DNA of 63,463 nucleotides, filler included, from Collodictyon triciliatum (taxonomy: Eukaryota), in assembly GCA_043381765.1 (NCBI GenBank). It is 6 parts of 6 records of this genome, joined end to end, with 100 filler letters (N's around TTAATTAATTAA, not from the genome) between each part and the next. Parts side by side here need not be neighbours in the genome. Positions count along the whole stretch, not along the records: positions 1 to 10,401 come from JBHJMP010002689.1; 5 more parts are not named here. One strand, 5' to 3'. This document shows, piece after piece, positions 196 through 59,642 of the stretch. Position numbers and translations under genes: made by a program. A model generated the notes under the pieces. It was not told the DNA's origin. It searched no databases and was given only the letters and a program-made list of their open reading frames with translations. The first letter of the stretch is position 1. The number at the start of each line of letters is the position of its first letter.

Positions 196-3100
196 GGATG
201 CGAATATTCGGTTTAATATGTCCAATTTCCTCGCTAAGACTAGCAATTTCTTGTTGAAGATTTACGAGTCTCTAACCAAGAAAAAAATAGACTAAAATTT
301 AAAATTGAAGGAAAAGCAAAGTGAGGATTCGATTTGGACATCTAGTAGGTAATATAAGGGGCAATACACTGAAGCTTTCACTCTGGAGCACAACTGCAGA
401 TTCGCTAGGTTCTTCTAATAGTGGTTGCAATGTCGAGATGACTAGCGTAGTGGTCTCCTGTACAAAGATTTAAGTAAAATCATTTTCTTCATCTTAACTT
501 TTTTATTATCATCATGTAAAAAAACATGGACAAGATTTATCTATACTATTTTAATTTACATCATTTGCAGGTGATTTAGCAGATATATTCCTTTCCTTTT
601 GCCTGGATAAATAAAAAAATGTTCATACCATAGAAGGTCTGTAAGCAAATATATATTTACAAAGTGCACACATTTGAGATAATATATTAGTTAACCAAAT
701 TACTCATTGGGAGTAAAATGAAATCCCCTTGACTTTGGTGCGAGAACAGCAATATCTTTTTCATCGCCTTCGATCGGAGTTTCGACTGGTGATATCGTAG
801 ATTCTGGTAGTTCGCTGTGAAAGTCTTTTTCTCCTTTATTTGACTGGACCTTGGCGTCTCGCAAGTTGGTAGAATCGAGTGAAGTTTGCATCTGCTCAAA
901 TTTCTCTGTGTGTGAGCCACACTCTTTTTGAAATCGTAATACCGTTTGATTCATTTCCTCCCATTGGCGAGCAAGTTTTTTTGTCTAAGTATTTGATAGC
1001 GTTTAATATTATTTCATTAACACGAGGCCATATCAGTAGGGTATATTAATTTGTAATCAAGCAGAATATAGAGGGAAAAAAACCAAGTCTAGTGAAATGC
1101 GATTCATCTCGGCCGGGGTTGCCTCCTGCGAAGCTATATGCTCTTTCAGCACTAAGGCTATTCCATCTATTGCAGACCAGAATGCCTTTCCAATATAAGC
1201 GCTATCCTCTAAAATGACTTTATGACGATGTTCAAAGCTTTGTAGGATAGCCTCGATTTTGTCCCGGATTGCTATAGAATGGATTGAAGAATATTCGGTA
1301 TCACCGGTGCCATCAAGGGCAATGTTTCGATCGTACAGGGCCAATAATTTCTATTTATAAAGTCAAATCAGTTCATGCCGATCACTTCTATGATGACACG
1401 GTTTTGAAAATAAACGCTATGAAAGAATTCTTACCATGGTCTCATTAGCATCATTCTCTTTCTCCTCTAGTTTCAGACGAGTCATATTCAATTCGTCCTC
1501 TATCTTTTTGATAGTAACTATATGATCCATCCTATCGGCTTCTTTTGATTTTATAATTGTAGCAAGCTCCTCCTCAATGGAATTTATTCGTTCAGTTTTA
1601 ATAATAGACTCAGACTCAAGGATGGCTAAATTTCTCTCAATAACTTCTCGGGAAATCTTCAATTCAGAAACGACATTTTGCTCTTTTTTGATAGAGATAT
1701 TCAACTCTTGAATTACAGAACTTTTTGATTCCAAAGCGTCCTGAAGTTCCTGATTTCTGAGCTCCAGGCCTTTGATAATTTCTGGCGCAGAAATGAGAGG
1801 TAGTAATTCACTAATTCGAGTTTGCATCTCTTTATTTGTCGCAAGCTGAGATGAGTATTTTTCAGACATTTCTGATAACTCTCCTTGGATATCATCCATC
1901 GATGCAATCCTTTGGCGGAGCTCGGAGATTTCTTGTCCTCTTCGTTGATTTAGTGAAGTAGCACTAGTTATTTCGGTGTTCATTTTACTCAGTTTTTCAT
2001 TCGACAAGTCAAGCTGCCTATTCAATTCAGAAATGTCAAGTTTCTTGGACTGAAGTTGGTCTGAGAGAGTGACTATCTCAGCTATCTTGTCCTTTACATC
2101 GCATTCCAATTCTGTTATTCTTCTATGCTTGGACTCAATTTCGGATTGATAAAGTGCAGATTCTTCAACTATCGCTTTTAGTGCATCTATCTCTTGAATC
2201 TTTTCGGATAGCATTTTCTCCAGTGATAATTGTTTTGCTTGCAAGGAGTCTATCTTTGACTGAAGGTCTTGCTCTGTTTGTACAAAGAAATCAATTCTTG
2301 ATTGAAGCTCTGTATTTACAATTTTTGACCGATTCAAATCATTTGCAATGTCCAATGACTTCTGTTCCATAGCCGTTATCAGGGCCTGTGCTTCGAGTAA
2401 TGATGCAGATATACGGTATTTTTCTGTCTGGACCTGCGCCACATTTTCCTTCTCCGAGGACAATAGACTGGATAATTCACCTACTTTTGATTTTAGGCTA
2501 TCGTTTTCTACTTCCAAAGATGCAATTATCTGGTTGTAGCTCTCTACCTGACGAGAGTGATTTTGCTTCAATTCGGTTAGCGTTATGACTAAATTGTCGT
2601 TGTCGCGTGCTATACTGAGTAGCTGTGTCTCTAAATCAATTAATTTGATACTCATATCATCGGAGGTCTGGGCCTTCGAAACTGTTTGTTGTTGGAGCCT
2701 GTCAAAGTTATCTCTTAGAATGGTATATGTTTCTCGTAATTGTGAGTGCGAGGCATCAATTTCATTTCTTTCTCGAACGATGAAATTATAGCTTGATTGG
2801 AGTTCTTCCAACTGACATTTTAGTGTGTCCATTCCATCTTTAAGGATGGACTTCTCGTGCTCGTTGGTGCTTAGCGAGCGATTCATATCCATAATACGCT
2901 CTTGTAGCTGTCCAATTTGTATCATATGAGACTGCTCGATATCTTTCAGGGTTTCTGATAATATATTGTAGTCGTTTGAAATTTTAGCATATTTATCCTC
3001 CGTATGGTGCAATAGCGATTCAGTTCTTTTGATTTGACCTTCCAACTCTTGAAGTGATTTTTGAAGAAGATCGTTTGCTTGATTGCTCTGTTCTAAACGC

Positions 3101-4754
3101 TCCGCTATGAGATGGGCATTAGATTCCGATCTCTGAAGTCGGGAGCCAAGATCTACAATTTGACTCTTGTATTCGTTAATCGATAGGGTTAGCTGCTGAA
3201 CACTGGCATCACGGTCAGAATTAATCGAAGACATTTCTTCAAAGATTTTAGACTGCCTCAAATTTTGATTGACAGCTGATTCTAATTCTTTCTGGCATTG
3301 AGCTAAATCAGATTCAGCCTTTTCCAATTTTGCCTCATAATCACTCAATCTATTATTTAGTGCTAATAATTCTTGCTTAGAGTCTGACTCCTTCTCACCC
3401 AAAATTTGCAGGGAGTGTTCGAGATTGAAAACTTTCTTTTCTATGAGCTTTTTCTCCTGCTTCTCGTCAAGTAAGGTTTTTCTTTCTTTTTCCATGACAT
3501 CTATTTGTATTTTGGAATTCGATAACATGCCTTTTACCTCATCGTTTTCCTTTTGTATAGCTTCAAAATCTTGCTTCATTTTCGCCATGACTGAATTTGT
3601 CTGTGAAATTCTGGACTCATACATATCAACGGCCCTTGAATATTCATCGTTGTTTTGTGTATTCAGCAACTTCAAACCTTCAATGGATTTTTCGAATGTG
3701 CAAATCTGGCCTTTTAATTCCATTATGGTTGAGTGATGAATGTCTTCATTAGTCTTACGCACGTTATTTTCCGCAGCTAGCTTCTGAATCAAGTCGTCTC
3801 TTTGAAACAGCTCTTTATTTAATCGATCAATCTCTGCAGCTTGTTTTTGAGAATATTCCTTCCTTTCTCTTAGTTCTGCCTGCAAAAATTCTTCTTTTTT
3901 CTCACTTGGATTCTTATCTTGGTTTTGATAAATGATGCTGCGTGCATCTTTCTCAGCTAACTGTTCATAATCATTGCGCTCTGTCGATTTTTGGGCGGTT
4001 GTTGCATTTCCCTCACCATAGCCCACTATCACTGTCTCTTGGTTAGTAGATGTAAGTTCCTGCGATACGAACTGGTCGCCATTTGTTGGTGACGGATCCG
4101 CATTCGGGTGTAACGTCACATGGCCAACCTCTTGTGGTTTATCCTCACTACTTTCTAATATCTCACCATGTATAAATTCCCTAGATTTTGGTAATACGAC
4201 TAGTTGTTCTATGATATCATTACTTTCTTTTTCGTGTTGGTGTGATATAATATCTTCCGAAGGACCTTCATCAACTCTAGTTGATGTATATAGTGGCGGT
4301 GTATCCACAAAGTAATCTTTTTGCTGCTCAGTCTGTGCATCTGTGCATTAATATACATAATTAAAATAGATCGACGTCAAACTCTATGAAATATTGATAC
4401 ATATGCTAGGAACAAAACCTCTCGGACTGTTCACGACAGAGATAGTTGCTGAGTGAGATGTGCCAGCGTGAGTATCATCTAATATTGCCGAAGCCAAGAG
4501 TTTTCCTTCTGGGTGGACTGTGGACTTGCTTTTCTTTTTTTGAAGCTGAAGCAAAATAGACGTTTTTTTTTTTTAAAAAAAAATTAATATGTAGTTTAAA
4601 AATATGCTAAATGCCCCTCGTTCAAAGGTATTATTCTTTTTGGTACAATGCCATAGCTCAAAAAACATCACAGTCCAATCATTCAAGGTATTTCAATGAG
4701 ACAGTAACAAACCAACTCCCGGGCTTTTGCTATTCTTTCTTGGCGGTCCGACAT
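196..4754 (-). CDS. Very long coiled-coil protein (multi-exon, 3' end outside the window); golgin-like basic N-terminus, possibly leading into a C-terminal kinesin motor
   Basis: The 963-aa heptad-rich ORF 1417-4308 joins in frame, through GT-AG introns, to upstream exons (MSDRQERIAKAREL|LQKKKSK...) and downstream exons. The last visible exon (196-271) reads RLVNLQQEIASLSEEIGHIKPNIRI. Confidence 0.8.
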
Positions 4755-5290: not shown

Positions 5291-8200
5291 TTAACTTTGC
5301 GACCCTTGCGATGCCTTAAGCTTTTCTCTCAATTCCTAAGACGGAATGAACAAAAAAAAAAAAAAAAAAAGAACGTGCGAGTCAGAATCGAGGAAGAGGA
5401 AAGAAGCAAACGCAACCCAATCAATAGCACGTTAGCAGAGAGGCCAGAAATACTCTGACGGTTTTTGGGGGCGATAGATATATAATCCTATAAATTCTAG
5501 GATGGGGTGCCCTCACTTTAAACCGGGCGATGCACTCCTTCTTTGATTTCCCCGGAACCATCTCTGCAATCTTGTCCCATCTATCTGTTAACTGGGCAGA
5601 GAATGTCTTCAAACCTGTCTCAAGAGCCTTCTGCTGTTCGGCAGTCCACACCGACGAAGCAGCAGCAGATTCAGACTGCTAACATCCCAACAGCGTTAGT
5701 AAAGAAGTGCCACAACCTCTCATGAAAATGGGGTCCGGGATTGGAGTAAAGGCCAGTGAGTTTCGAAAACAAAGGAATATCCTCGCATCCAACATTTCAG
5801 GCCTATTGAATTATTCACCTTCTTAGGAATCTCCTTCGAGGCAGTCTCTGGGCTGGATACCTTTGGTGAGGCAGGGCTCTCTATGTTGGTATCTGATATA
5901 ATTGGAGTTTCTCGCGCGGTAGGTTCTGCAAGTGCAGCAGCTTTCTTTTCGCCTGGAAGGGATTCTGCGATCGGTTTGACAGCCTCTGTTGTATGTATGT
6001 ACGGAAGGGAGAGTCAGTTCTCTTCGTCAACAATTACAATAGAAATTTTAGGTGTATTAATGATAAAACACAAAATACAGCATGAAAATAGACATGGTGG
6101 TTTGGTTGAGCATCCCTTTTTGTTTGCTGCAGGTGCTATTCAATCAAACTAACCTCCTTTTTTCATCAACTTTGTTTTCTCAATAACCTCCTCGGGAGAG
6201 CGTGTCCCAATAAGATCTGCAATCTGTTGCCATCGATTGGATGCACCTCCGGGATATTTTGCGATTCCTTGAGCCAGAAGTGAAATTTCGGCTCTTGTCC
6301 ACTCGGTGTCTGCATTTAAACATTTGTTTACAATTATGAATATCATTATTATAGGTAATATAATCGAAATAAAGAAAGAAAACCATACTCTTCTTGGGTT
6401 CGACCTTCGGAGATGCTACTGTAGCTTTGGGAATAGCCGGTGAAGGTAATGGGGATGGTGACGGTGTGGTGACTTTTGGTAAGCTTTTCTTCTCTTCATA
6501 CTAAATATCACATATCACACAACACATATCAAATATCAAATGGTCAGTTTGGTTTCCCCGGTGCGATGCCTTTCGCAGCTACAAAACAAAACAAAACAAA
6601 ACAAAACAAAACAAAACAAAACAAAACAAAACAAAACAAAACAAAACAAAACAAAACAAAACAAAACAAAACAAAACAAAACAAACAAAAAAACTAAGCT
6701 GTTCATTTTTGTTATTGATTTTGAATGTAAATTATTTTCTGTAATTACGATGAAGCCGAATATATATTAATATTAATATATATTCGGCTTCATACGAACC
6801 AGTTCCCGAAGCTTGACTATAAATTGATTCGGGTTTAAAGACAACAAGCCCATGTCTTCAGATAACTGACGAAGGTCGTCAATTCCCAGGACCGTAGCAA
6901 TGTGGTCTGCTGCACTGTTTAGCTCTTCCACTTCGCTAGATTTCAAGTCTGGGACAGACTCGACAACTGCCTTAACTATGGACTTGAGATTGGACCTTTC
7001 CTTTTTCAGATTCTTTTTTTCCTTTTCCTTTTGTCTCTTCAATGCTGCTGCCTAAGACAAAACGATATATCAATGTCCACAGAGAAACCAATGCCGTTAC
7101 AGGAACGATATGACCAACCTCCTCTGCCTTTTTCCGTTCTTCGTCTTCGACTTTCTTTCTCTCCTCTTCTTCCTTCCTTAATTTCTTAAGAGGAAAAAAA
7201 AAAAAAAAAGAAAGAAAGAAGGAATGATGTCATATTATACTACTGCCTCTTTAAATATGACGAAGATAAGCTCAAAGATAATCTCTTATGCTTGGATGGC
7301 AAGTGATACCGCTTCTTCCTCAAGGCGCTTGGCTTCAAGTTTTTCCTGTTTTTTCTTTTCACGGGCGTCGATATCGGCCTGTTTCTTCCTAGATATGCGA
7401 GGGTCATACTTGTATGCTAAATGTGAGGACATAGTCAAGGAGCAAAAAACATGCAGTCTTCTCGTTTGAGGCTTTGTATGACCTGAGAGGATTTTCAAGC
7501 ACTATCAATTTGTATATATATATATGCAATATTCCACCCAACAGAAACTTAACAGAAAGGATATCTATGAGCTTTCTCAGGCGAATGTTTTCATCCTTGC
7601 GCTTTTTGACCTTGTCGCGCTCATTTTCTCTTTCCATCCATCTTCTTTCCTCTCTACAGGAAGCTTGATCCAGGTCGTGCTCGTCTTCTCCTGAAAAGTC
7701 TCTCCATGATTTGAAGTCATTCCAAAATTCATAAAATTCCATGACCTTAAACCCGATTCAGTTAATAAGGACATATTACGCTATATTAGATTCCTCATCA
7801 CCAAACATTTTCAAATACATAGATGCTCAAAAATAAATGTATGAACAACAACAACAACAACAACAACAATAACAACAACAATAACAACAACAATAACAAC
7901 AACAATAACAACAACAATAACAACAACAATAACAACAACAATAACNNNNNNNNNNNNNNNNNNNNNNNNNNNNNNNNNNNNNNNNNNNNNNNNNNNNNNN
8001 NNNNNNNNNNNNNNNNNNNNNNNNNNNNNNNNNNNNNNNNNNNNNNNNNNNNNNNNNNNNNNNNNNNNNNNNNNNNNNNNNNNNNNNNNNNNNNNNNNNN
8101 NNNNNNNNNNNNNNNNNNNNNNNNNNNNNNNNNNNNNNNNNNNNNNNNNNNNNNNNNNNNNNNNNNNNNNNNNNNNNNNNNNNNNNNNNNNNNNNNNNNN

Positions 8201-10234
8201 NNNNNNNNNNNNNNNNNNNNNNNNNNNNNNNNNNNNNNNNNNNNNNNNNNNNNNNNNNNNNNNNNNNNNNNNNNNNNNNNNNNNNNNNNNNNNNNNNNNN
8301 NNNNNNNNNNNNNNNNNNNNNNNNNNNNNNNNNNNNNNNNNNNNNNNNNNNNNNNNNNNNNNNNNNNNNNNNNNNNNNNNNNNNNNNNNNNNNNNNNNNN
8401 NNNNNNNNNNNNNNNNNNNNNNNNNNNNNNNNNNNNNNNNNNNNNNNNNNNNNNNNNNNNNNNNNNNNNNNNNNNNNNNNNNNNNNNNNNNNNNNNNNNN
8501 NNNNNNNNNNNNNNNNNNNNNNNNNNNNNNNNNNNNNNNNNNNNNNNNNNNNNNNNNNNNNNNNNNNNNNNNNNNNNNNNNNNNNNNNNNNNNNNNNNNN
8601 NNNNNNNNNNNNNNNNNNNNNNNNNNNNNNNNNNNNNNNNNNNNNNNNNNNNNNNNNNNNNNNNNNNNNNNNNNNNNNNNNNNNNNNNNNNNNNNNNNNN
8701 NNNNNNNNNNNNNNNNNNNNNNNNNNNNNNNNNNNNNNNNNNNNNNNNNNNNNNNNNNNNNNNNNNNNNNNNNNNNNNNNNNNNNTAACAACAACAATAA
8801 CAACAACAATAACAACAACAATAACAACAACAATAACAACAACAATAACAACAACAATAACAACAACAATAACAACAACAATAACAACAACAATAACAAC
8901 AACAATAACAACAATAACAACAATAACAACAACAACAACAATAACAATAACAATAACAATAACAATAACAATAACAATAACAATAACAATAACAATAACA
9001 ATAACAATAACAATAACAACAACAACATCATCATCATCAGAATGACGCATTTAAACGAACAGGCAGACCTGTTTATAAGGAGTCGAATCGTCTCCGAGCA
9101 GCGGTACTGGTTTTTCACTCGACCATCTATGAAACAAAACCGACATTTGTACCCACCAACGATTTCGTTAGTATCAATTCACTTAAGTTTGAAAATCTGA
9201 ATGGTCAACAGCAGAGACTGATGTGCATATTTCTAATGTTTATATATATATATATATATATTTAAAAAAATACTTTGAGTTCCTGAAGAAAACAGGACCG
9301 TAAACTTCATAAAAGTTTTCGCCATCTTTGAAGCTCGGTATGCTGTCATCGAACGATTCAGAAGAATCATACTCTCTCTTTTTCTTTGGGTCACTCAAGA
9401 CTTCAAATGCTGAGATTGGTGATACACATTTTTTTTTTTAAAAATAACAAGAAAAAGAAAAAGGTAAAGATTAATAAAAATAAAAATAAAAATAAAAATA
9501 AAAATAAAAATAAAAATAAAAATAAAAAGAAAAAGAAGAAATAATCGAATACAAACCTTTGTGGATGGCTTTAAAAGCTAAATCATTTGATGTGTCTAAC
9601 TCAGGGTCTCCTGCTTGCTTGTCTGGGTGGTATACGAGGGCCATTTTTCTGTCTAATGAAGAGAGATAAGCATGTTATGCAAAAGCCGATCCCGCATTCT
9701 TAAAATTATCATAAAACGATTAAAAATTGACTCATCAAAAGTGAAATCATACATGCTTTTCGAATTTGTTCGGCAGACGCTGCCCAGCGCACATCCTGCA
9801 GGCCCAAAAGTGCATAGTGATCCTGATTGGTATTTTTCAGATTATCGTGAGTCAAAAATTCACATGGAATAAAACGATTCTCTCATGAAAAAGTGGAGGG
9901 TATGCCATACCACGCATGGAAATTAACCCTGATAACTAAAAAAAAAAAAAGTTGCAAAATTTTTTTTTTGCAAACACTATGATTTAAGTACGAAATTAGA
10001 TGTCAATATGCACCTGCTCCATGATTGCACCAGCTATAATAGCTTTCTGGTCAGCTTTCGTAGTTTTAGGGGTTGATACGTCTTCTGCATCGGCGACACC
10101 GGAAGCGGCTTTCTGTGCTTTCATGGAACGCTTTGATGGTCCCGCTGTATTCGGATTCAACTGCTCCCGAATATTTCTCAGCAGCTCCAGAATACCCTTT
10201 CCGGCATTCTCCACCAGTCTTTTTCCTGGCCAGC
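5291..10234 (-). CDS. DNAJC2: DnaJ subfamily C member 2 / zuotin (MPP11) ribosome-associated J-protein, 5' partial
   Basis: Spliced exons give a J-domain (DHYALLGL...[12 protein letters not shown]...[16 protein letters not shown]), a zuotin homology region ([15 protein letters not shown]...RWMEREN...[11 protein letters not shown]) and two SANT/Myb repeats ([32 protein letters not shown]...DRWDKIA). Stop TAA at 5291-5293. Confidence 0.95.
6580..6687. repeat. (AAAAC)n microsatellite, intronic
   Basis: Tandem pentamer visible in the sequence. Confidence 0.95.
6750..6793. repeat. Perfect 44-bp palindrome in a DNAJC2 intron
   Basis: atgaagccgaatatatattaatattaatatatattcggcttcat equals its own reverse complement. 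Confidence 0.95.
7423..7564 (-). other. U12-type (minor spliceosome) AT-AC intron in DNAJC2
   Basis: On the minus strand the 5' site is G|ATATCCTTT, the branch site is TCCTTGAC (7441-7434) and the 3' end is AC|. Removal restores the in-frame sequence [16 protein letters not shown]. Confidence 0.93.
7843..9027. repeat. (AAC/AAT)n microsatellite spanning an assembly gap, inside a DNAJC2 intron
   Basis: Tandem AAC/AAT triplets on both sides of the N run. Confidence 0.9.
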
Positions 10235-10401: not shown

Positions 10402-10501
10402 NNNNNNNNNNNNNNNNNNNNNNNNNNNNNNNNNNNNNNNNNNNNTTAATTAATTAANNNNNNNNNNNNNNNNNNNNNNNNNNNNNNNNNNNNNNNNNNN
10501 N
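10402..10501. other. Artificial contig spacer N44-TTAATTAATTAA-N44
   Basis: A six-frame stop 12-mer embedded in Ns; the identical construct occurs five times in the window. Confidence 0.97.
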
Positions 10502-19516: not shown

Positions 19517-19590
19517 GCTCCTGTAGCTCAATCTGGTAGAGCATTGGTCTTATGAGCCAAAGGTCGCGGGTTCGATTCCCGCCCGGAGCA
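19517..19590 (+). tRNA. tRNA-Ile(UAU), intronless
   Basis: Cloverleaf with acceptor GCTCCTG/CCGGAGC, D-arm GCTC/GAGC, anticodon arm TTGGT-CTTATGA-GCCAA and T-arm GCGGG-TTCGATT-CCCGC; a TTTTT Pol III terminator follows. Confidence 0.95.
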
Positions 19591-20656: not shown

Positions 20657-20730
20657 GCTCCTGTAGCTCAATCTGGTAGAGCATTGGTCTTATGAGCCAA
20701 AGGTCGCGGGTTCGATTCCCGCCCGGAGCA
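20657..20730 (+). tRNA. tRNA-Ile(UAU), identical second copy
   Basis: Sequence identical to 19517-19590, 1140 bp downstream, with the same T-run terminator. Confidence 0.95.
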
Positions 20731-20902: not shown

Positions 20903-21002
20903 NNNNNNNNNNNNNNNNNNNNNNNNNNNNNNNNNNNNNNNNNNNNTTAATTAATTAANNNNNNNNNNNNNNNNNNNNNNNNNNNNNNNNNNNNNNNNNN
21001 NN
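20903..21002. other. Artificial contig spacer
   Basis: N44-TTAATTAATTAA-N44. Confidence 0.97.
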
Positions 21003-23190
21003 TTGTCAATCCATTTTGATGTTTCTAAAAATAAAAATCCAAAATAATGTATTTGCGGTGGGATTAGTCATTCAAAATATGAATCTGGCGATTTTTTCAA
21101 CTAAATAAAGTTATGAATGAGCACCGGCGTCGTAAACCCAAACGTCATTTAGTCTAGATGATGGCCCACATCCTGTGAGATAAATCAGTCTATTTTTAAC
21201 CCTGGTGAATGCGGCATTGCTTCTAGGAGATGGAGCCACAATCGGGTAGGTCTTTAGGTAATTCGGCTCTGGAAAACTTTCGGTGATAAATGATTTTGAT
21301 TCTATGAATAGTTCAGGGATATTAAATTACTACAATAGTAAATTATTTGAATTATCTCATGTGATGGTGAATATTCTATGATTTTTTGTAAATGAAAAGA
21401 TATTGATATATTACTTAAATCCAAAACTGTCATGTTATTTGTGAGTAAGGATGCTCCACTATCCAAGGAACCACTGAAAGAAAACATTTTGTCTTGGTAG
21501 ATTATTGGAGCTCCCATGAAAAAAGGCTTAGAAATTATTTCTTCGGGTGGATTCCATTCATGATTCGCTTCAAAATATCAAATTTAAAATGAAAAAAACT
21601 GTCTTTATATAAATTATTACAAGGTTAAAATAATATAGCAGTACGTCAGATATTGATATAAGAATGAAGCGAACATATAAATGCACAATATTAAAAGCTA
21701 TTTACTCAGGTTAAAAGTCCAGTATTTTGAATAGAGCCTATTGTATATGTCAACACCGCTGAAAAAGACTAAGCGACCATCGTACAGCCCCATTTGAGAA
21801 TAGGTTAATAAAGCTTGGTTGACGTTGGTTGAAGTAAGTGCCGATATAAAGCTAAACCAAATTTGAGTCTCTGTGTGCATTTACAAGAAGAAAAAGAAAA
21901 AAAGAAATTAATAAAAAAAAATNNNNNNNNNNNNNNNNNNNNNNNNNNNNNNNNNNNNNNNNNNNNNNNNNNNNNNNNNNNNNNNNNNNNNNNNNNNNNN
22001 NNNNNNNNNNNNNNNNNNNNNNNNNNNNNNNNNNNNNNNNNNNNNNNNNNNNNNNNNNNNNNNNNNNNNNNNNNNNNNNNNNNNNNNNNNNNNNNNNNNN
22101 NNNNNNNNNNNNNNNNNNNNNNNNNNNNNNNNNNNNNNNNNNNNNNNNNNNNNNNNNNNNNNNNNNNNNNNNNNNNNNNNNNNNNNNNNNNNNNNNNNNN
22201 NNNNNNNNNNNNNNNNNNNNNNNNNNNNNNNNNNNNNNNNNNNNNNNNNNNNNNNNNNNNNNNNNNNNNNNNNNNNNNNNNNNNNNNNNNNNNNNNNNNN
22301 NNNNNNNNNNNNNNNNNNNNNNNNNNNNNNNNNNNNNNNNNNNNNNNNNNNNNNNNNNNNNNNNNNNNNNNNNNNNNNNNNNNNNNNNNNNNNNNNNNNN
22401 NNNNNNNNNNNNNNNNNNNNNNNNNNNNNNNNNNNNNNNNNNNNNNNNNNNNNNNNNNNNNNNNNNNNNNNNNNNNNNNNNNNNNNNNNNNNNNNNNNNN
22501 NNNNNNNNNNNNNNNNNNNNNNNNNNNNNNNNNNNNNNNNNNNNNNNNNNNNNNNNNNNNNNNNNNNNNNNNNNNNNNNNNNNNNNNNNNNNNNNNNNNN
22601 NNNNNNNNNNNNNNNNNNNNNNNNNNNNNNNNNNNNNNNNNNNNNNNNNNNNNNNNNNNNNNNNNNNNNNNNNNNNNNNNNNNNNNNNNNNNNNNNNNNN
22701 NNNNNNNNNNNNNNNNNNNNNNNNNNNNNNNNNNNNNNNNNNNNNNNNNNNNNNNNNNNNNNNNNNNNNNNNNNNNNNNNNNNNNNNNNNNNNNNNNNNN
22801 NNNNNNNNNNNNNNNNNNNNNNNNNNNNNNNNNNNNNNNNNNNNNNNNNNNNNNNNNNNNNAAAAGATGCTGCGTGCTGTTGTATGGTTGTAAGGGGAGA
22901 ATATTTGCCTATCAAAAGACTAAGGTGCTCATATTAATTAAAGAAAAATCGAATTAAATTAGAATAAAACAAAAAAAGGAACATAGTATAAAAATAAAAA
23001 TAGATAAACCGCGAGATAATAAAAAGAAAAAAAGACACAAACTTCCCAGTGAAGCACCAAGAGATGTACACAGGAGCGACGCCCAAACGGCAACGAGAAA
23101 CGCAACCTGCCGGGCGCTGCAAAACGCAAAGACCATGCCTACGAGCCAGACAAATAAATGAAGCCTTCTGGACTCCCTTTGTATTTGCAA
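21003..23190 (-). CDS. Secreted or membrane kelch-repeat (beta-propeller) protein, 3' partial
   Basis: A hydrophobic first exon (MQIQRESRRLHLFVWLVGMVFAFCSARQVAFLVAVWASLLCTSLGASLG) is followed by blade-like exons: LVFFSGVD...YWTFNL; MFSFSGS...MTVLDL; APSPRSNAAF...LIYLTG...LNDVWVYDA. The first-exon link crosses an N gap. Confidence 0.75.
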
Positions 23191-46100: not shown

Positions 46101-49100
46101 GCAGCATCTATATGGTGGGTATATTTTCCATACGATTGTAGGCGAAGGAAAAAAACCGTACGAAATGTAAGATTGGGAGAAATTCAAAACTTGCCTTATT
46201 AATCTATGTTTCTATTCAATTTTATGGCATGTATGTATGTATGTATGTATGTATGTATGTATGTATGTATGTATGTATGTATGTATGTATGTATGTATGT
46301 ATGTATGTATGTATGTATGTATGTATGTATCCCTTTTTTTTTTCTTCTTTTTTTACGTATTTCAGTTTGTAAATTGGATATTCATATAAATAGAATTCAA
46401 AATAAAAAAATCGGTTAAATTTACTCAAGGACTTCCTCTCCATGATTAAATAACAGCCACACATTAGAATTTCGCTTCCGCAAAATACTTGGTCTCCATT
46501 TTTTTGTGACCTTAAAAAAACCAATTCATATACGATGTGTAGATAAAATTTAGTAAAGTAATATTGCTTTTGTTTAAAATAAAAAAAAATACGGACCATC
46601 CGCCCTTATATGATATAAATAAAATAAGAAAAAAAAGTCAATTATATAAGCAATCAGACATATGCAGAGACGTATATAATAAACTTACTTGAAGAAGAAG
46701 TGTATCAAAAATATCCAATACCCGTAGCATTTTATCCGTCAAAGCCAACCACATTTCATTCTCAAACTCTATTTCCATCACAACAACAAAGTATTCTGTA
46801 TTGATCTCACGTATGGATGCATTTGAGAACCTCCTCTGAATAGACAGTTTTGTCAGATGCCTGATTCTTGACTTCAAAATGGTTATCGATGAGGCAAAGA
46901 ATAATCACTAAAGAAACGAAATGTTACATGATTTGCGACATCTTGATCCTCTTCAAATCCAACTCTAATTGACTAGGATGGTTAAATATATCAGTTTTAC
47001 GGGAAGCCATTAGTTTCAATGACACTAAAGTAACCATAGTAGATGTGTTACTAAGTCAAAAAAATTGGCATTAAATATTCAAAGTATTAAATTCATAAAA
47101 AAAAAATTTTTAAAAAAAAAACATCCAATGAGTGATATTTAGATTGTTATTATTTTAGGTATTCAAATGACACTATTTCCTCAACACAATGAATCTGTAT
47201 CAAATAAGTGTGACACACCTTTAAATGATCGATGATAGCAGAAAAATCAAGCCTTTTTGACGGGTCAGCCTTCCAATTTTTTTCCATTATTAATCGAAAT
47301 TCGTAAATGCATCCATCTGGTATTGGTGGACGGCGATTGTCGTTCACAACCAAAGACAATAGGGCCATTTCATTTCGAATATCCGAATACAACTCTTCTC
47401 TGGTCATGACTTCCCATAACATAATTGCAAAACTGTATGAATCTGCTTTGGTGGTAACCTGAGATTTTGATATTTGCTCTGGAGATAACCATGGGGTTGA
47501 ACCCAGAGTCCCTGAGACTTTATACTCAAGACCAAAGAATTGTCTCACTATTCCTCTGTTTAAAAAAAGGCACGTCATTAAAAAAAAAAAAGTTGGATAG
47601 GACTTTATTCTATCATGTGTACTATTCATTAAATACTTAATGCAAATTAGTATATTATTTCCTACCCAACTTTTACATGCAAGTGTGAATCAACCTAATC
47701 AAAGACCATCAAATCAAATTAGAAAAAATTGTTCTCTTTTAGAAATGTGATACCAAAAGGAAATTGAAAAAAAACTATCCAACAGGGAAAGGAAGGGGAA
47801 AGGGTTATTTATTTATTTATTTTTACCATGATAACAACACTTGATAGATTTCCATGTATTACTGGATTTCGACAGTTATGCAAAAAGTACACTCCTAAAC
47901 AAAGAATAAGAAGTAATGTGAAAATCGAAGTCAAAGTACAATTCGTTTTCATTGGAAAAAATCATCCAATTAATTCTAAAGCTTTAAATTTTCGGGTACG
48001 AATCATCTTAACGTAAGTTACCCTGAGCTATCTGCAACAAGATGTCGACTTTGGTCTCGAGATTCAGCAAGCGCGAGCCCCTCAAGAGACTGTTCAATGA
48101 CCCTTCGTTCATGAATTCAGATAAAACATATATGAATTCATTGTCATGAGTTGTACCCATGTAAAGAAGAATGTTTGGGTGGCGATAGGACCTATGGAAA
48201 AATTAACTTGTCAATATTTTCTTTAATTTTTTCCAGACATACAAAGGTTTTACTAGATAGATATGTCGCTTATATGTGTAATTTAAAGGTTGGCATAATA
48301 ATAATACTTTGAATCGAATAAAGGGAAAAAAAGTTGGCATAATACGATATTTGAATCAAGGTGTCCTCATGCAGGTCAATATTGCCTATTTCTTTGGAAA
48401 TTTTTTCTATATCAACGTAAATTCCTCTTATCTTCCCGTACATTCCCTTTAGAGTTACAGTAATAAGTGAAAATAGATATTCAAAAAATGCCAAAAGAAT
48501 TACAGTTTTTTTATGACTCGAATTGTTTATGATTTGAGAAGATTATATACAGTAGGAATTCGGTGGGGTACATATGACCCTTCAATTTGAAGTTGTTCAC
48601 GCTCAAAGACTAACAGTCGCTTCTTGACTTTTCTTCGAGAAATACGTATTTTGCCGCCATAAAATCGAACAATCACGAAAGCGGCAAAGACCACCACGAT
48701 AAACAATGTTACAGGCGTTATAATCACGACTAAATTCCTATACGAAGACTCTGTGCATTGCGACATTAGATTTCAGCAAAAAATATATATTTGTTTCTCT
48801 ACATGGAATATTTCACTGATTACCTGAATTCTCATTCTCACTGGTTTCGCATTCATACTAATCCAAAAAAAAAAAAAAAGGATAATAAAAAAAAAAAAAA
48901 TAATTTTTAAAAAATTATTACTATTAAAATTAAAANNNNNNNNNNNNNNNNNNNNNNNNNNNNNNNNNNNNNNNNNNNNNNNNNNNNNNNNNNNNNNNNN
49001 NNNNNNNNNNNNNNNNNNNNNNNNNNNNNNNNNNNNNNNNNNNNNNNNNNNNNNNNNNNNNNNNNNNNNNNNNNNNNNNNNNNNNNNNNNNNNNNNNNNN

Positions 49101-50518
49101 NNNNNNNNNNNNNNNNNNNNNNNNNNNNNNNNNNNNNNNNNNNNNNNNNNNCTCACTGGTTTCGCATTCATACTAATCCAAAAAAAAAAGGATGATAGTA
49201 AGAATGAAATTAATCTTTAAATAATTATGGCTGCTAAACTTGGACAAAAAAAGATAAATAAAGAACTCATCGTCTTTAATGATTTCATGTATATATTTTG
49301 CAAAAAAAAATAAAAAAAAATAATCCAGTACCTTTAAACATTCTCCTGTTTTTGATTCTGATACTACCATCGGCCCATTTTTACACTTACATCCAAAACC
49401 ATGCAGATAATAAGAGCCCAAAGGGCAAACTGCGTAAATGAAAGGATACGCATATCATTAGGAAAATTAGAGTGAAGCTCGGTTTACATAACACACAAAA
49501 TTATAGAAATTTTATCCCGCATGTAAAATATAAACATCACATTTATAACTTGGTTTATTCTCTTTTTAGAAAATATTTTACTACGCTATCTTAGAATTTT
49601 TAAAAAAAAAATCCCTTTATTTGATTCAAGTGAAGGAAGGGGTTTTAGTAGAAATTTAAAATTTGATTTTACAAACACCTGCATGGATAAGTGTAAATCC
49701 TCTAGAACCGATTTTTGTTTGTCTTGATGAATTAAAATTTACTATAATACCATATCCATCAACTTTACCGATAAACGAACCGTTACCGGTAAATGTTTCT
49801 ATGGAATCCTCTTTTCCGTTTATTCCAAAGTACCTCATTATAACCCTTTTATGCAGAAGATAAAAAAAAAGGTACTTTAATAAAAAAAAATAATAATGGC
49901 AATGGAAATTTTTACATGCCCGAAATCTACAAAACAATCAAAAGAAGCTACTGTTCAAATCTTACGCATCACCACCAGCCAAATCGTAAGTGAGGTTAAT
50001 GTGATTTGATTCATAGACAACCCATTTGCAACTTATTCCAGTGATGTATCTTGAATCCATGTTTCCGCCGTCCAGATGTTGCTCCTTGAAATTCCCGCAA
50101 CCAACGAATGATCTATCGCTGGAACAAAAACCTGGAATTATTATATTCACACAAATTATATTAGTAATTTCGTGTTATTATTTTATTATGTTATTATTAT
50201 TATTACTTATATTGATACGACTATCATTATAATTTTTGGTATTATTGTTAGTAAAATTATTGTATATTATATCACATGTAAATGATCGAATGTAATCTTA
50301 TTTAATAGTCTTCTTTTGATGATAGTAATGGGAAGTAGAAAAAGCGAGTACCAACGCTTGAGCTAGACAGGTATGAATTGAACATGGCATAGCTCTGACC
50401 GCCATAACCCCACAGCCTATTTTGAACAAGGACTGCAGAGAAGCCAAAATAAATTTGATCCGAGGTGGTAATCTTAAAATAAGGCCCTGGTATTAACTTT
50501 GATGATTCTATTGTAAAA

Positions 50519-50557
<39 letters not shown>

Positions 50558-53500
50558 GTAAATAAATAAATAAATAAAACATAGTTTCCTGTAAAAAAAA
50601 TAATAAAAGGAAACACTTTATATTAGTTCAAGTTTTTGAATTTTTCATAATCAAATGGAAATTGTAATGTATTCATTTCGTTTCATTTGATGGTATAGAA
50701 GAGGAATATACCCATGTCCAAAAAGTAGTTTTTAGAATTAAAAGCGTCAACTTCAACTTCGACCATGACCAAGAATCTGTCAATGACAACAGAACTGAAA
50801 ATAGGTGATATATTTGGTATACTGACCCCCAACTGAGACCAAACAAGGGTGTCTATTAGTTTGTAAGATGTTACGGAAAAAAATCATTTCAACAGAAACC
50901 CCTTGCTATGAAATTCTGGCTTATTTGAAAAAGATAAGAGAAGAGATTAAGTGGTACTTATATTGATGAACCAGATATCACTTTGAGCTGCATTGCCATA
51001 AGAGACTCCTCCCACAACCCATATGACGTCTCCCCACGTTGCCACGCAGCTACGAGTCCTTAAAATCTGTCATAAGTTCCATGAATTATCCCAATTTAAT
51101 ATGATACTTTGTGAGTCTATCATCCAAGGATTAAAAAAAAACTAGACCCAAATCATAAATAAAATTAATAATAGTAATTTATTACAGGTCCCATATTCGA
51201 AGTTGGAAAAATCGATATATTTCTAGACGACATATCAAAGTGAATTATATTCCTTTGCACACTTCGTTGGGATGTCCGTTCTGTAGTCTTTCATGTTATT
51301 TAAAGCCCTTTTCAGAAATATTTATATATTTCTTCGGTTTTCAGTAGAAGAAAAATCACCATTTATATCGAATTTGTATAAAAAAAAATTAGAGATGCCT
51401 TGCCACCCACTAGCCAAAGACCGGTTCCATTTTGAATTTTGCCAACACCAATTCGAGAGAAAATGGAATGTAAATCATAACTTGAGGGAGCAGAAAAAGT
51501 TGACCAAGTACCAGCCGTAAATATCCATAGCAAAGTTTCTATAATTATATTTTCTCCTTTTCCGCCGAATACGAATATTTTGTCTTCATAGCTAGAAAGT
51601 GTCATCAAATATCTCGGCTCTGGAGCATTTGGCTGAGAAGTTGCTCTGCTCAGTGCGCTCCAACTATAAGTTACTAAACACGCCGATGAGTTTTTTTTTT
51701 TTTATGAAACAAAAACACAGAAAAAATATTTCAATATACTCACCAGTATTATATCCCCATAAGTCATTCAAATACATAGTGGCTCCATAATTTGTGATGC
51801 CTCCGAAGATAACAAAAGAGTCCTGATTATATCTTGCGATGGAGCTATCCCTTCGAGGCATCGGAATATATTGATGCGACGAATCTTTCCAAATTCTCAT
51901 TGCTGTTGATTCATTTAACGACATGAAGGTTAAAAAAAAAAAAAAAAGAGTCTTGTATCAAAGCTGTGGGTTAATAAGTCTATACTTTACATGCATGTCA
52001 AAGCCCATTAATTATATATTATCGATGTAATCAATCAACGCACAAATGGTATTTTTCTTTATTCGATTCAAAGAACGCACGAGCATAATATTTCTTTATG
52101 TAATTCAACACTCCACCTCCATCCCACACCCATATATCATGAGCAGTGGAAAATTTTTCGGTACCTCCAGCGATGAGAACACCTTTTCCTCGATATAATA
52201 CTGATATTGCACCAAATCTTTGCTGAGGCCATTTTATAGGAAACCCTGATTCCCATACGGTGTCTTTGTTATAATACACTAATTCGAGAGTTTCTAGAAA
52301 CCAAACATTCATGAAATCAGTTTTGATATAAATTTTTGATGTGATAAGAGGACCCTACATCCCCGTATACCTTGAAGATAATATTTCTATTTTTTTTTTT
52401 TAAAAAAAAAAAATCTTACGAAGGGATAAAACCATCATGTCATTCATAGAGCTTGAGCCAGAAATACCACCAAAAACGTGTAGCTCATCCCCAATCAACC
52501 AAAAATTAGATTTCGAACGTGCCATCAGCCCGGTGCTAATTTTCGACGATAGACAAGGTGAAATATTAGGGATTCCACGATTAATCCATGAATTGATACC
52601 TGAATATTTAATTTCATTTACAATTCAAAACATGATTAACGAGAAAGAAAAGAATAGAAACTTTGATTTAAACACATACGATTTATTTTCCCATTAACAA
52701 TGAAAGTAAATAAGGGCCGTAAAATAAACTTTGTGTACGGGGAATGTCATGATTTTTAAGTATTCAAATGTCCAGTTACTTGTATCATATATCCATAGAT
52801 TCATGGAGTCTTTTTCTCCATTCCATCCAGATAAAACAAATATCTTATTCCCATAAATTGCCCCAGATGGATATGAAAGTTTGGGGCTACTCGTGAAGCC
52901 ACTCTTGATTACCCAACCATCAGAAGCTAATGGAAGAGGGTTACTAAAAAAAAAATAATAAAGAAATAGGTTTCATAGTATTATAGCACGATGAACTACT
53001 ATTGAGATTTCAAATGGATCATATTTCACAAGTATCGTAGATGCTGCCGTTCATGAAATCCTTGGTGACGAGCTTTGGTCATAGAAAGAATGGTGACACA
53101 TGTGAAAGATTTTCATCGTGTAAGTTAAATGAATAAATATAATATTGAATCCAAGATTTTTTTTATTAAATTTTACATTTATTCCCCCCATAATGTATAT
53201 AATAGTTTGGTTCAGGAGACACAAATGTCCTTCACTTTCTGGAAAAGTTTCATTTCCGAGGAATTCCCATTTCTTCCTGTATAAATCCAAAGAGAAAATG
53301 CGAGGATTATAGACACTGAACGAAATCCCCCCAAATAAAAGACTTTTCCCTGAGAGAGGAACTATGCAAGCTCCATATCTTGAGTCAGGCACATATCCTG
53401 AAACGGTTGTCTCCTTAATAGAATATCGGAAAGGTTCTAAATATTCAGTTCCGTCAAACCAAAAAAAAATTAGTGAAAAGATTGTATTTCTTTTCTTAAA

Positions 53501-56500
53501 AAAAATGAATTATTCACTTCAAACAGTTAATTAATATGACATCATCAAGAATACTTTACTGGTCGTAAGATATTGAAAATGTTCTTTTTGATTATTTTTT
53601 TTTTAAAAAAAAAAAAAAGGTACCGATGAACAAACCTTCCATTTTTACTTCTAATATCGAATCACTTCTTTGATAAGGCTTCGGGGGGTATATGAAGGGT
53701 GAATGCAACCCATTAAAAATATAGAGAGTGCTTCCCGTAATAACACCATTTCCCAAATAACCAGAATAGGTTGCGTGATGGGTTTTTTGTGTAGTAAAGT
53801 CGATGTCTACGTGGCCATTATATGTGTAAGTAAGTTGAAGTGGCTCCATTGAAGGTAAAGTACTTTATTTTTTTTTAAAAAAAAAAAAAACCTGGAATCG
53901 TGTCGATAGGTGGTGGCTTTGGACAAGGGAGTAGCAAAATTAGTAGATGTTAGACGGGGATGGCGATGATGAACCATAATTTTCTGTTTGATAGTCGAAA
54001 AATGATATTTGACAAAGAAATTGAATACCCTTTCCCCAGGAATGACCGGTTCTCTAATATTGCAATTTCCTAGGAAATCAATCGTCCCCAAGTACGAAGG
54101 GCATACACAAACTCCGTCGATTAAGAGAAAATCTGTTCCGCACTCTATTGAAACGAAAACTTTATTCCATGACGACATGTTTTGCTTTTTTATTAAAAAA
54201 AAAATAAGAATTTGATTACGAATACAAATACAAATATTTCGAATCGTATAAGAAGAATACTTATGAATTTAAAGCTAAATCCCAGTCCTAAAGATGCATT
54301 CAATGCTACTTTAAATCGAAGCATGAGCTCGCCACTGCTTAATGGAAAGGATTTCCCAACCATGGATTTATCAAATTGTATCTTTTTGGGGAGAAAATCG
54401 TTTGAAAAAATATTTTAAAGCGAAATATATCATTATATAGATGATGTAAATGATTGTTCCTCTTACTTTATTGAAAGTTTTGTCTAGCTTTTCTTTACTA
54501 GATGTAAAGGGACATCCTATGGACTCCAGGACAACATCTCCTCCACTTAATACATCAAAATCTTGAACCTGTGGGAGTTTCAATATAGGGTACTGGTTTA
54601 ATCCACAAAGGAAGAGAAAAAGTCGATAAAAAGGGCATGTCAGCGCCCTATTGCAGCCATACTTTCCAACTATATGAAACTCATGCAGGATCTTTTGTTT
54701 CAAATATTGTAAATATTCATGTCCATTTACATGTATCCAATTTGCTCCCATCACTATCCAGGAGCAATTCGACCCAGCCAAATATCTCATGTTGCCGCTT
54801 CCATCAGTGATAGATACTGAGGTCTCAACAGTTACCGTTCGCTTCATGGGACAGTATAACGTGGCTGTAATAAGGAGTCGTCAACTTGGTTAAATTTTGT
54901 AAAACTGTCACTTTTATTACTAAGAAAAGTTGACATGATTCAGTTATGAATTCGGATCAAAGACGAAAAAAAAAATGTTCTAATATTTTTATTTTTTTCC
55001 TTTATTCGATTCGATGTTCTAATATTTTTATACAATTGATATTTCTTTACATAAATCCAGAGTAGAAAGATGATATATATTTGAAGATCCGGGAAGCCAT
55101 GAGGCAGACACTATCCTTGTTCCTTGCACGAGAGAAAAGCGGTTTATTTCTGATGGAGAATCGGTTGGAAGATGTATAATTTTCCAAGATTCTGCTATGA
55201 AAAAAAAAAGCATTAGATCTTAGGGGAAGAAAAAGCGAGCTACATTTCAAGTTTAAGTGATGAGTTAAAATGAGTCATATCTTCTAAGTTGCATGGGTGT
55301 CTGTAAACAAGTGAATATCTGATATTCTATTAGGCACACTGACCATCAAATATTATGGCAGAACGCTGTTGCTCAGGCAAATAATATGCTCCTGATATTA
55401 TGAAATAACCAACATGCCCAAATAATATATCAAATCCACCCCAGTTGATTGGGTAGGATTGAAAAACTTTCCTCCAAGTAAATGTGACTGAATATTGTAC
55501 AAATTTAGAATAAAAAAAGGAAACATTCTCGAAATTTACATATTATTATGGAATATCGAGAGATTACCAACTTTCATTTTAATTTGATGTAATTTATAAT
55601 TTATAAATACCTGTATGAAAGCACCATATATCATTGTATGTTAAAAATCCTGGACGTATACCGCCGGCAATACAAAATTCATCGCCCACTAGAGCAGACG
55701 AAGCAGATACTCTATAATCAGGGCTAGAGCTGAAACTTTCATGCACTATGTACTCCTCCCGAAGCAAGTCAACCATCAATATTTGGTTTTTGTAAATTGA
55801 CGAAGCCGGAAAGCGTGAATCGGTAGAATTTGTCATCTCCCACGATGAAATCCATAAGGTTTCTCCTGTCTGGGCATAAGCAGGATAGTGACTAGTCTTT
55901 GAGAGTATCTCGTCACATACCCGATTCTTCAACTGTATATCACTCCATGTTAACGTGTCTAAATTATTGATTTTTCAGATATGCCATTCTTTGAAACCAA
56001 AACATATAGGATTAAGATGATGTATTTTATTAAAATGGAACCTAAAGAGAATTTCCTGAATACATTAGCTATTCTATTATCTAGGGGTTGTCCAGATATA
56101 ATATAAAATGTGTTGTTCAAGTAGGCTCCTACCTGAATTTAAAGATCAAGTTGTTGTTATTGTTTTAAAAAATACTGGCATCTTGAATCAAAGTTCGATA
56201 CTGTATGATAGTCTATCTTTTTCTTTAAAAAAAACTTCTCTTGGTATATACCAGGTAAGAGTTAATTTATTTTAAAGTACATAAAGATAATTGAATTGGA
56301 GATTACCCCAGAAGATATCAGGGGACTACATGACGATACGGATACATCACAAGGCGACTCTCTGAGAAGTCTTTTCCATTCAATTTTTTCTGCATGTTTT
56401 TCAGTTGATTTGTTGAATGGGATAATATCAGAGATTAAAGAACTGTCAAAGAGTATAAAAATATTGGAATGTAATTAAGGCACAGAGTAAATATATTACA

Positions 56501-59265
56501 ATATCGCTTTGCCACCGAAAATCATATTTCATATGAGAAGTAAGCATCAAAGGATGAAAAAAGTCAATGACACTCGAGTTATCATAAAAGCGTGAAAACT
56601 GTACAGACAGCTACGAATAGTATTCACCCTCGTTAAACATCCAAACGTCGTTCAGGGTTGTAGATACGCTATGCATCCAACCTCCAAATAAGATGAAATT
56701 TTTTTCATCCGCAGGAATAAATATTGGTTCGTATCTATTTGTTGGTCTACTGTACGGCGAACCCCATACCCAGCTTCTTGTTTCTTAAAATCAAACAATA
56801 CAAAAATAAAAACCGTTAGGACCATACTTTGATTGGTATAAAACAGAATATTGTATTTTTTTCTCTTTTCAAAACAGTATTTTGTCTTGATTGTTTGAGT
56901 TGAAAACATCATCTAGCCAAGAAAAAAAACTTGTTTGTTGGCTTCAAACCTAGCGAAAACATCCATATGTCTTTTGTGGAAAAGGAAATACTCCCTCCGA
57001 ATAAGATGAGCATATCTCCATGAGTAAATCCAACACCTCCTAATTTTCGAGTGGGAAACCGAATCGGCAGAGGGCTCGATGAGTTATATGCCTCATCTCT
57101 GTACTGTGAAACTCGAATTTGACCAGCCCCTGGTACAAAAACCGTATAAATTTAAAGATATCAAATGGATTATGTAGACATGCATTAGGTATTTTATCGT
57201 TTTAACTACCATAAAAAAAGCTGGTAAAGTGTATTTCAGAAGAATCCATATCTGATCGACCACCGTATACATACAATATGCCCTTATATCCGAACAAAAC
57301 ACTTTCTGCTCTAAAGTTGAATGTCAACTGAACTTTTTTCCATGATATAGTTTCTATAATTTAAGATTGCATTCATAGTATTAGAGCACGCAGTGATGTG
57401 GTAGTTATAAATTAGCAAATAGTAAAATTGACCATTCGAAGAAATCAATAATATTCAAACAGCCCAGTAATCCCAATACACACATACACAAGAATGTAAC
57501 ACAGGGATCTATTTCATATAAAGTCCTTCCAGCTAATTCTTTTTATCCCAATTAAATCCAATATCTGTAATTTTAACAAGTCATGGCATGTAGATACTCA
57601 CCAAGTTCAAATATCCACAAGTCATAGGAAGACGATTTGTTAAAAGCACTTAGGACATATAATATACCATCGACATATTGATTTTGTGATAGGGACGTCG
57701 TCGGATACAACGGACTTCTGTAATTCACCAATGCCCATGTATTGGTATCTTGTAAAGATGAGAGAATTCAATGTGTATTTAGCAATTGAACACCAACATC
57801 AGTTGAGAACATGGCTCGATGAGCTTAAATAATGTGACGCATTCCAGTAATTCGCAATTGATCGACCCGTATATGTTAGCAAAATACCTGGTTGATACTT
57901 CCATAAATCACTCAAAAGGGACTGCGTTCTGGGGTAGTTTCCTCCGTATAGGTATATAGCATTTCCATGGACAAATAAGTAAGGTAAATCTCGCACTGGT
58001 GGCCCGTTTACCCCAATCAGAGCTGAGCTCCATTCCAGGTCCAAAAGAGAAAGAGTATACATATATAATCCAGAGCCCAATGATACAGTCCCGACGAGAT
58101 ATATCTAGGTTTGTATTATTTGGTAAAAGTATTCCAAAACTCGTTTTTTTTTATTAAAAAAAAACTACATGTTAAGGTTATTTAGAAAAAAATTATTGAA
58201 CGAAATTGTAAGAGTTGCATTACAGTATCAAGGTATTCGTACACTATGGATACATACGGTATTCATGAAATGAACAGCGGACATTTGGTTTATATTTGAT
58301 GGAACATCGCCGCTTGTTACAAATGAAGGCATTTGCTTCGTCTCTGAAAATATATTGGATATATTTAACTTGATATAGGATAAAGACGCGAATCTGCGCA
58401 TACCATGTCAAAAAAAAAATCTAAGGTTTTAGAGTATATTGGTAAATCTGAGGCATTTTTCTGTGAAGTAACATTGACAAGAATGATAGCAACAGTTGAA
58501 GCTTATTGATTTTTTTTTAATTTATGCTTAGATGGTGAGTCCATACTAACAATTCAAGGCGAATAATAGGAAAAATAAAACATCGGCCAATTCAATTGAT
58601 GCATGATATATTTGTATATCAAGATCACTTTTTACCTATATCAAACTTGAAAAGCTTGTAGGAGAATGGACTGATATATGATAAAGGTGGCATTAAATAT
58701 GAGAATAAAAATCTGGCCAAAAAAGTTCACGTGTATGAGTAGATTCCTCTTCATGAGGATGTGGATGATTCCTTACTTTGTACAAAGCCAGTATACTGTT
58801 TTATCGACGTGTACTACCAATGGAGAAATAGCACCACTAGGTCGCTCATCCAAATGGATCCACCGAGAGAGACCATCATCTGCAATATCATCGGACAGAT
58901 CAGAAAGAAGAGTACAAAAGGGTCATTAGACATGAGATTTAACTATAGGGTTTGAATGTGAGGAATATATCGAGATTTATGGAGAGGGAAAGAGAGTGAT
59001 GATGAGGGGGAGATTCAAGGTTGGTTTGAATAGAAATTTGTTCAGATTATATATTTGAGACAGACCGGGCAGGCTTGACATCAAATAAAAGAATAAAGCA
59101 AACCAGTCTGTCGGTATGTCGAATCAGCTACGCGGCGGAGTAGTACCGGGGAGAGTACATGCAACCAAACCAGCAAAATAGTGGCCGTATTTTGCATGCT
59201 GGTGGCTTACCTATGAATATGAATGGATGATTGAAGGGTTCTCTTGCTCCCGCACTGTGGGCTCC
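43101..59265 (-). CDS. Large single-pass receptor: kelch repeats and two CUB-like domains, TM helix, TKL pseudokinase, degenerate class III cyclase, second pseudokinase (5' partial)
   Basis: Many kelch exons (IYLYGG...DLWKY; FVIFGG...LNDLWGY); CUB-like DGSGNMRYLAGSNCSWIV and DSRYITGISCKWVV; TM LVVIITPVTLFIVVVFAAFVIV; kinase 1 RHPNILLYMG...WLSPE...KADSYSFAIMLWE; cyclase-like FQSALLNYEWP...FQGLCVKM...YGGQII; kinase 2 IKHPHIASVLG...YRAPE...GDIFAFG...RCLSPDPVHRP. Stop TGA at 43101-43103. Confidence 0.88.
44405..44530. repeat. (TCTTTA)n microsatellite, intronic
   Basis: Tandem hexamer visible in the sequence. Confidence 0.9.
46229..46330. repeat. (TATG)n microsatellite, intronic
   Basis: Tandem tetramer visible in the sequence. 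Confidence 0.95.
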
Positions 59266-59542: not shown

Positions 59543-59642
59543 NNNNNNNNNNNNNNNNNNNNNNNNNNNNNNNNNNNNNNNNNNNNTTAATTAATTAANN
59601 NNNNNNNNNNNNNNNNNNNNNNNNNNNNNNNNNNNNNNNNNN
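59543..59642. other. Artificial contig spacer
   Basis: N44-TTAATTAATTAA-N44. Confidence 0.97.

Follow-up and report, generated by a model that had tools for sequence, protein, structure and literature searches.

A probable U12-type AT-AC intron in a DNAJC2/ZRF1-type gene of Collodictyon triciliatum

A minus-strand intron of 142 nt at positions 7423..7564 of a 63,463-nucleotide stretch of the Collodictyon triciliatum assembly GCA_043381765.1 (the window, taken at its full length) is very probably a genuine minor-class (U12-dependent) AT-AC intron, lying in the zuotin homology domain (ZHD) region of what its sequence suggests is a DNAJC2/ZRF1 ortholog. An earlier note on this DNA had proposed such an intron from the letters alone. 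Its length, strand and coordinates, the 5' splice site, the branch motif 11 nt from the junction and the terminal AC were all borne out by direct reading of the minus strand.

Splice signals and reading frame at the junction

The 5' splice site ATATCCTTT occupies 7556..7564 and carries the full U12-type consensus; starting at the first intron base, it agrees with the extended [A/G]TATCCTT form. The branch-point sequence TCCTTGAC (7434..7441) agrees with the TCCTT[A/G]AC form and falls within about 10-15 nt of the 3' splice site. Read along the minus strand, 11 nt separate the end of the motif from the 3' junction, and the presumed branch adenosine, A 7435, stands 12 nt from that junction. The 3' splice site is the terminal AC dinucleotide (7423..7424), and the intron termini, AT at 7564-7563 and AC at 7424-7423, are an accepted U12-type pair. 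The upstream exon ends in ...CTCATAG at 7565 and the intron in ...TCCTCAC at 7423. Altogether 17 of 17 consensus positions are intact, and the intron is free of N. For comparison, bioRxiv 10.1101/2020.10.12.336362 quotes the U12-type consensus as [G/A]TATCCTT at the 5' site and TTCCTT[G/A]AC at the branch site. Minor introns are described as usually avoiding phase 0. The exon model places intron 7564..7423 in phase 1, that is, not in phase 0.

The same boundaries emerge from the protein. The upstream exon (7565..7745, minus strand), identified by Pfam PF21884, homologs and structures, encodes most of the ZHD, and its last nucleotide opens an Asp codon that the intron splits. The downstream exon (7310..7422, minus strand), identified by homolog alignment, starts with the AT that completes this codon and continues as LAYKYDPRI.... 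Joining 7565 to 7422 thus completes the split codon (G|AT), and the spliced product runs ungapped across the join against all 22 retrieved homologs, including the six in the multiple alignment. Excision yields the zuotin-family motif given in the earlier note, and removal of exactly these 142 nt restores both the frame and the conserved protein sequence. Without splicing, read-through of the intron shifts the frame and meets a stop shortly after the intron. In the upstream exon the match to the 105-position PF21884 profile breaks off at position 94, where the exon ends, so that the domain needs the downstream exon. A Pfam scan of the downstream exon by itself (37 aa) gave no match because the exon is too short.

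Alternative junctions were scored against a profile of 22 DNAJC2 homologs from which the query was left out. The options comprised every in-frame, stop-free intron with GT-AG, GC-AG, AT-AC, AT-AG or GT-AC termini whose first base lay in 7645..7446 and whose last base followed 30 nt or more downstream, down to 7346 at the lowest, giving 224 in all. The AT-AC intron 7564..7423 ranked first of the 224 with 121.4 bits, and its product matched the homologs without gaps. The two in-frame GT-AG alternatives reached 112.1 bits (7537..7417, which adds seven residues) and 111.6 bits (7553..7409, which replaces four residues with three, a net loss of one, and removes an Ala present in all six aligned homologs). 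An AT-AG option, 7564..7417, reached 111.2 bits and loses two residues. Within a short interval (7417..7553, minus strand) lie two rival GT donors, at 7553 and 7537, and one AG acceptor, which ends at 7417; a further AG acceptor ends at 7409, 8 nt past the low end of this interval. With two in-frame GT-AG alternatives available, a gene finder limited to GT-AG introns would plausibly mis-model the junction.

If the intron is processed by the minor spliceosome, the 5' splice site ATATCCTTT would be bound by U11 and afterwards by U6atac, and U12 would pair with TCCTTGAC, leaving A 7435 bulged out. The choice of the 3' site would then depend on its closeness to the branch point (12 nt) and not on a polypyrimidine tract. 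That all 17 consensus positions have remained intact points to continued selection, and thereby to a working minor spliceosome and a U12 snRNA with the canonical branch-site-binding sequence. To judge from these signals, Collodictyon has most probably retained a functioning minor spliceosome, its U12 snRNA being of the canonical form.

Chance expectation and competing readings

Several observations weigh against the U12-type assignment. The individual motifs occur in the window at chance level: ATATCCTT was counted 3 times against 3.03 expected, RTATCCTT 6 times against 4.64, RTATCYTT 18 times against 13.57 and TCCTTRAC 4 times against 3.62. Even the composite signature, defined as ATATCCTT followed within 1000 nt by TCCTTRAC and then by AC 7-12 nt further on, arose one or more times in 19 of 1000 windows simulated with a first-order Markov model (about 0.02 per window). 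In the junction scoring, a non-canonical GT-AC option, 7553..7412, came to 117.6 bits with three residues changed and the length kept, and the in-frame GT-AG alternatives trail the AT-AC intron by just 9-10 bits. The homolog segments in the profile were moreover excised with the BLAST coordinates of the AT-AC model, so a slight bias toward AT-AC is possible. U2-type donors are loosely conserved here, with G at +5 in 9 of the 12 donors read in the DNAJC2 and fibrillarin genes, and alternative donors therefore cannot be dismissed by signal strength alone. Finally, neither the Rfam gathering cut-offs nor a limit of E<=1 revealed a gene for U11, U12, U4atac or U6atac in the window, a result that is expected at 63 kb and says little.

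Since the single-motif counts lie at chance, motif enrichment was not used as evidence. The composite signature occurs once in the window, as intron 7564..7423, and by itself it is merely mildly unusual; a relaxed form ([AG]TATCCTT, TCCTTRAY, A[CG]) was present in 209 of the 1000 simulated windows. What lifts the coincidence above chance is that both ends of the signature are the exact bases demanded independently by protein homology. A strict scan of the 63-kb window revealed no second short-range U12 intron besides 7564..7423, and a relaxed Physarum-style scan of the window returned noise only. Seven other RTATCCTT/GTATCTTT sites in the window were inspected, and none had an open upstream frame together with a well-placed branch site. 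The neighbouring upstream intron, 9068..7746, has TCCTTATTAAC 15 nt before its AG but starts with GTCTGC, and because of this start it was judged to be U2-type. Pfam was run on 150 of the 191 listed ORFs, and none matched a U11/U12-specific protein.

The GT-AG options are the natural competitors. The U2 spliceosome could remove 7537..7417 (GTGGAATAT...TTTAG) or 7553..7409 (GTTAAGTTT...ACAAG), in which case the U12-like motifs would be coincidental or relics. Both introns are in frame and stop-free, the acceptor at 7417 is preceded by a pyrimidine-rich stretch, and the loose conservation of U2 donors in the window is compatible with either. Set against this are their scores of 112.1 and 111.6 bits versus 121.4 for AT-AC, and the damage each does to the conserved protein, whether through the seven extra residues or through the exchange of four residues, one of them the Ala found in 6 of 6 aligned homologs, for three. 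Both rival GT donors also carry A at +5, versus the G of 9 of 12 donors read, which is weak evidence alone. Splicing at GT-AG sites would leave perfect U11 and U12 binding motifs at the homology-defined junction without explanation, and we consider this alternative very unlikely. A slightly smaller chance still goes to a U12-dependent AT-AG intron of 148 nt that ends at the AG at 7418..7417 and drops Asp-Leu, either constitutively or in an alternative isoform. This option is in frame at 111.2 bits, and in Physarum AT-AG outnumbers every other non-canonical U12 boundary pair, making up 29% of such cases. It nevertheless scores 10 bits under AT-AC, its two-residue deletion is seen in none of the aligned homologs, and its AG lies 18 nt from the branch adenosine, whereas the canonical AC is nearer (12 nt) and comes first.

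The least probable of the alternatives is that there is no functional intron at all, the gene copy being a pseudogene in decay or a product of faulty assembly, or minor splicing having been lost and the transcript not being productively spliced. The scaffold is indeed a patchwork, with an 840-N gap 380 nt upstream of the intron and five N44-linker-N44 joins elsewhere, and the failure to find minor snRNAs in 63 kb can be read in the same direction. Intron 7564..7423 itself, however, contains no N. The eight modelled exons are open, their alignment with homologs covers 333 residues, and neither the HPD motif nor the ZHD is damaged. The SANT pair, outside that model, matches on its own, and the 17 of 17 intact consensus positions argue for ongoing selection on minor splicing. 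A genuine U12-dependent AT-AC intron thus accounts best for both the splice signals and the protein.

The host gene and the rest of the window

The homolog-supported part of the host gene spans 5517..9849 on the minus strand, as delimited by tblastn, sequence reading, alignment and Pfam; the true 5' and 3' ends lie farther out. The gene was modelled by tblastn with four retrieved homologs combined with direct reading. Four J-domain exons (9849-9753, 9652-9557, 9409-9274 and 9126-9069) are followed by an intron of 1323 positions (7746-9068) that is taken up by (GTT/ATT)n microsatellites and by a gap of 840 N (7946-8785). With 840 of its 1323 positions being N, this intron may differ in real length. 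Next come the two exons that flank the U12-type intron, a GT-AG intron (7309..7185) and two further exons (7184-7119 and 7051-6800). All eight modelled exons are open, and their 333-residue translation aligns well with six homologs, HPD motif included. The six other introns in the modelled part, from the J domain onward, are all GT-AG. Two SANT exons, placed approximately at 6301-6164 and 5648-5517 by tblastn and Pfam, fall outside the eight-exon model.

The HPD motif of the J domain (...VYHPDK...) is encoded in exon 9652-9557 and aligns to homolog J domains. The ZHD matches PF21884 with an E value of 1.2e-20 in the ORF scan and of 7.6e-20 for the exon (profile positions 35-94 of 105), exceeding the curated cut-off. 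Two Myb/SANT domains were detected as PF00249 in the ORFs at 6152-6415 and 5424-5678, each above its cut-off and in agreement with tblastn. The host gene is accordingly recognizable, from these predicted domains, as a zuotin of the DNAJC2/ZRF1/MPP11 type, which it resembles in having a J domain with HPD, a zuotin homology domain and two C-terminal SANT/Myb domains. It also resembles fungal zuotin, in that the structures matched by the ZHD exon (7x3k_A, 5dje_A and 7z3n_C, E about 3e-8) are all fungal zuotins; fungal zuotin is not known to have the SANT pair. Over the 60 residues of the ZHD exon, the best of 22 homologs are 53-69% identical and include unnamed transcripts beside sequences from Rhodelphis marinus, Drosera and Naegleria; animal, fungal and amoebozoan sequences were absent from the 28 ZHD-exon candidates.

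Elsewhere in the window, an unusually GC-rich fibrillarin gene (GC about 51%) lies on the plus strand at about 28.0-29.8 kb. It contains an apparent GC-AG intron at 29501-29631 (plus strand): the exon ends in ...ATTAAG, the intron starts with GCGAGT and ends with ...CACAG before GCTAACTGC, and its excision gives ...ISIK|ANCIDST..., matching homologs. The fibrillarin exon has 5289 matches; most of the 120 listed share 80-91% identity (range 65-91%), and with plants, fungi, animals and protists represented alike, they say nothing about the lineage. Five identical joins, each made of 44 N, TTAATTAATTAA and 44 N, are located at 10402-10501, 20903-21002, 33254-33353, 59543-59642 and 62114-62213. 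TTAATTAATTAA reads as a six-frame-stop linker, which makes the window a chain of separately assembled contigs, perhaps not all in a certain order and orientation.

A tRNA-Ile(UAU) gene is present in two identical copies on the plus strand, at 19517-19590 and 20657-20730, which lie 1140 nt apart and score 70.2 bits each with Rfam. A 91-nt tRNA-Lys(UUU) at 51330-51420 (minus strand), called by ARAGORN only, sits inside a kelch-repeat gene region; it could be spurious or could contain an intron. That region is part of a long multi-exon gene region at about 47153-57300 (minus strand) with many kelch-repeat exons at 51.3-56 kb and a C-terminal TKL/Tyr-like kinase exon at 47153-47689 (minus strand), the best match of which is 48% identical among 1.84 billion representatives. 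An isolated kelch-like ORF is found at 21114-21326. The minus strand further carries an uninterrupted coiled-coil ORF of 976 residues (1420-4347), which has a weak, sub-cut-off CALCOCO1-like Pfam match and no homolog at E<=0.001 among 7998 scored candidates of similar length, and an ORF of 500 residues (31739-33238) that consists almost entirely of tandem 14-residue units (TFEETQPMTKKxxN), its Pfam matches being sub-threshold and driven by low complexity. On the plus strand, exon 24769-25035 matches RabGAP-TBC (E 7.8e-8) and exon 39596-39832 matches the GNAT domain of Mec-17/alpha-tubulin acetyltransferase (E 4.4e-7). Given the distribution of this enzyme, the latter match may hint at an organism with cilia or flagella.

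Relation to known minor splicing

The DNAJC2 intron resembles the canonical U12-type AT-AC introns of animals, plants and many protists in its 5' splice site, in a branch site near the 3' end, in its AT-AC termini and in not being in phase 0. A further likeness is that it is the single one of its kind in its gene, all other modelled DNAJC2 introns being GT-AG. It differs from the canonical mammalian set in its host gene. No DNAJC* gene appears in the mouse/human minor-intron gene table of PMC6717393 (supplementary file 1), in which the control DERL2 is present, and the DNAJC2 intron hence stands outside the conserved mammalian minor-intron set. Nor does DNAJC* figure among the responsive human introns tabulated in PMC11347168, and no DNAJC2 entry was found in the supplements of PMC11347168, PMC6717393, PMC7507305 and PMC10639083; DnaJ and zuotin go unmentioned in PMC2846911. 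Among the matches listed for literature searches that combined the DNAJC2 name with 'minor intron' or 'AT-AC', no paper paired them. For a search that combined the DNAJC2 prefix with 'U12-type', the top paper turned out to concern DNAJC21 instead; by title and opening of the abstract, the other matches deal with apple fruit-skin pigmentation (two papers) and with non-coding RNAs in myelodysplastic neoplasms (a review).

Physarum polycephalum offers a second comparison. The two share the U12-type 5' splice site, the AT-AC termini, a host that is neither animal nor plant, and DNA rich in simple repeats. According to the study by Larue, Elias and Roy (bioRxiv 10.1101/2020.10.12.336362), 20,899 of 175,198 Physarum introns are U12-type, a TTTGA branch motif lies 9-12 nt from the 3' site and is matched by two changes in the U12 snRNA, and conserved U12 introns are without the classical branch site. 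The Collodictyon intron, in contrast, has the classical branch site TCCTTGAC, and one U12 candidate was found in 63 kb. Because of this classical branch site and the single candidate per 63 kb, minor splicing here appears to be of the ordinary, sparse kind. The same two features make Physarum an unlikely source of the DNA.

Minor introns are already widespread on record: a survey of more than 3000 genomes (PMC10639083) reports them in 1172 of 1844 genera, including amoebozoans, stramenopiles, several fungal groups, green algae and a glaucophyte. No general view is altered by the present case, since most major groups of eukaryotes have documented minor introns. As far as the sequence can tell, the DNAJC2 intron is a real, ordinary representative of a known class and not a new kind of element. 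A less ordinary account is unlikely, though not negligibly so: the lineage would be a poorly sampled one in which minor splicing is perhaps undocumented, and the intron would be either ancestral, having been lost or converted in animals, or a rare lineage-specific gain. Poor sampling is suggested by the best match of 69% for the ZHD exon, by the homolog-free 976-residue ORF and by the best match of 48% for the kinase.

For the gene itself, the right junction repairs the DNAJC2 model, because an annotation restricted to GT-AG would add seven residues to the conserved ZHD or swap four of its residues for three. The evolutionary value is modest: neither human nor mouse DNAJC2 counts as a minor-intron gene, and the intron adds one data point on the loss, conversion or gain of such introns. 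For the organism, one intron with the full consensus supplies good, if indirect, evidence that a minor spliceosome with a canonical U12 snRNA is at work, and it predicts that minor snRNAs would be present in the full assembly.

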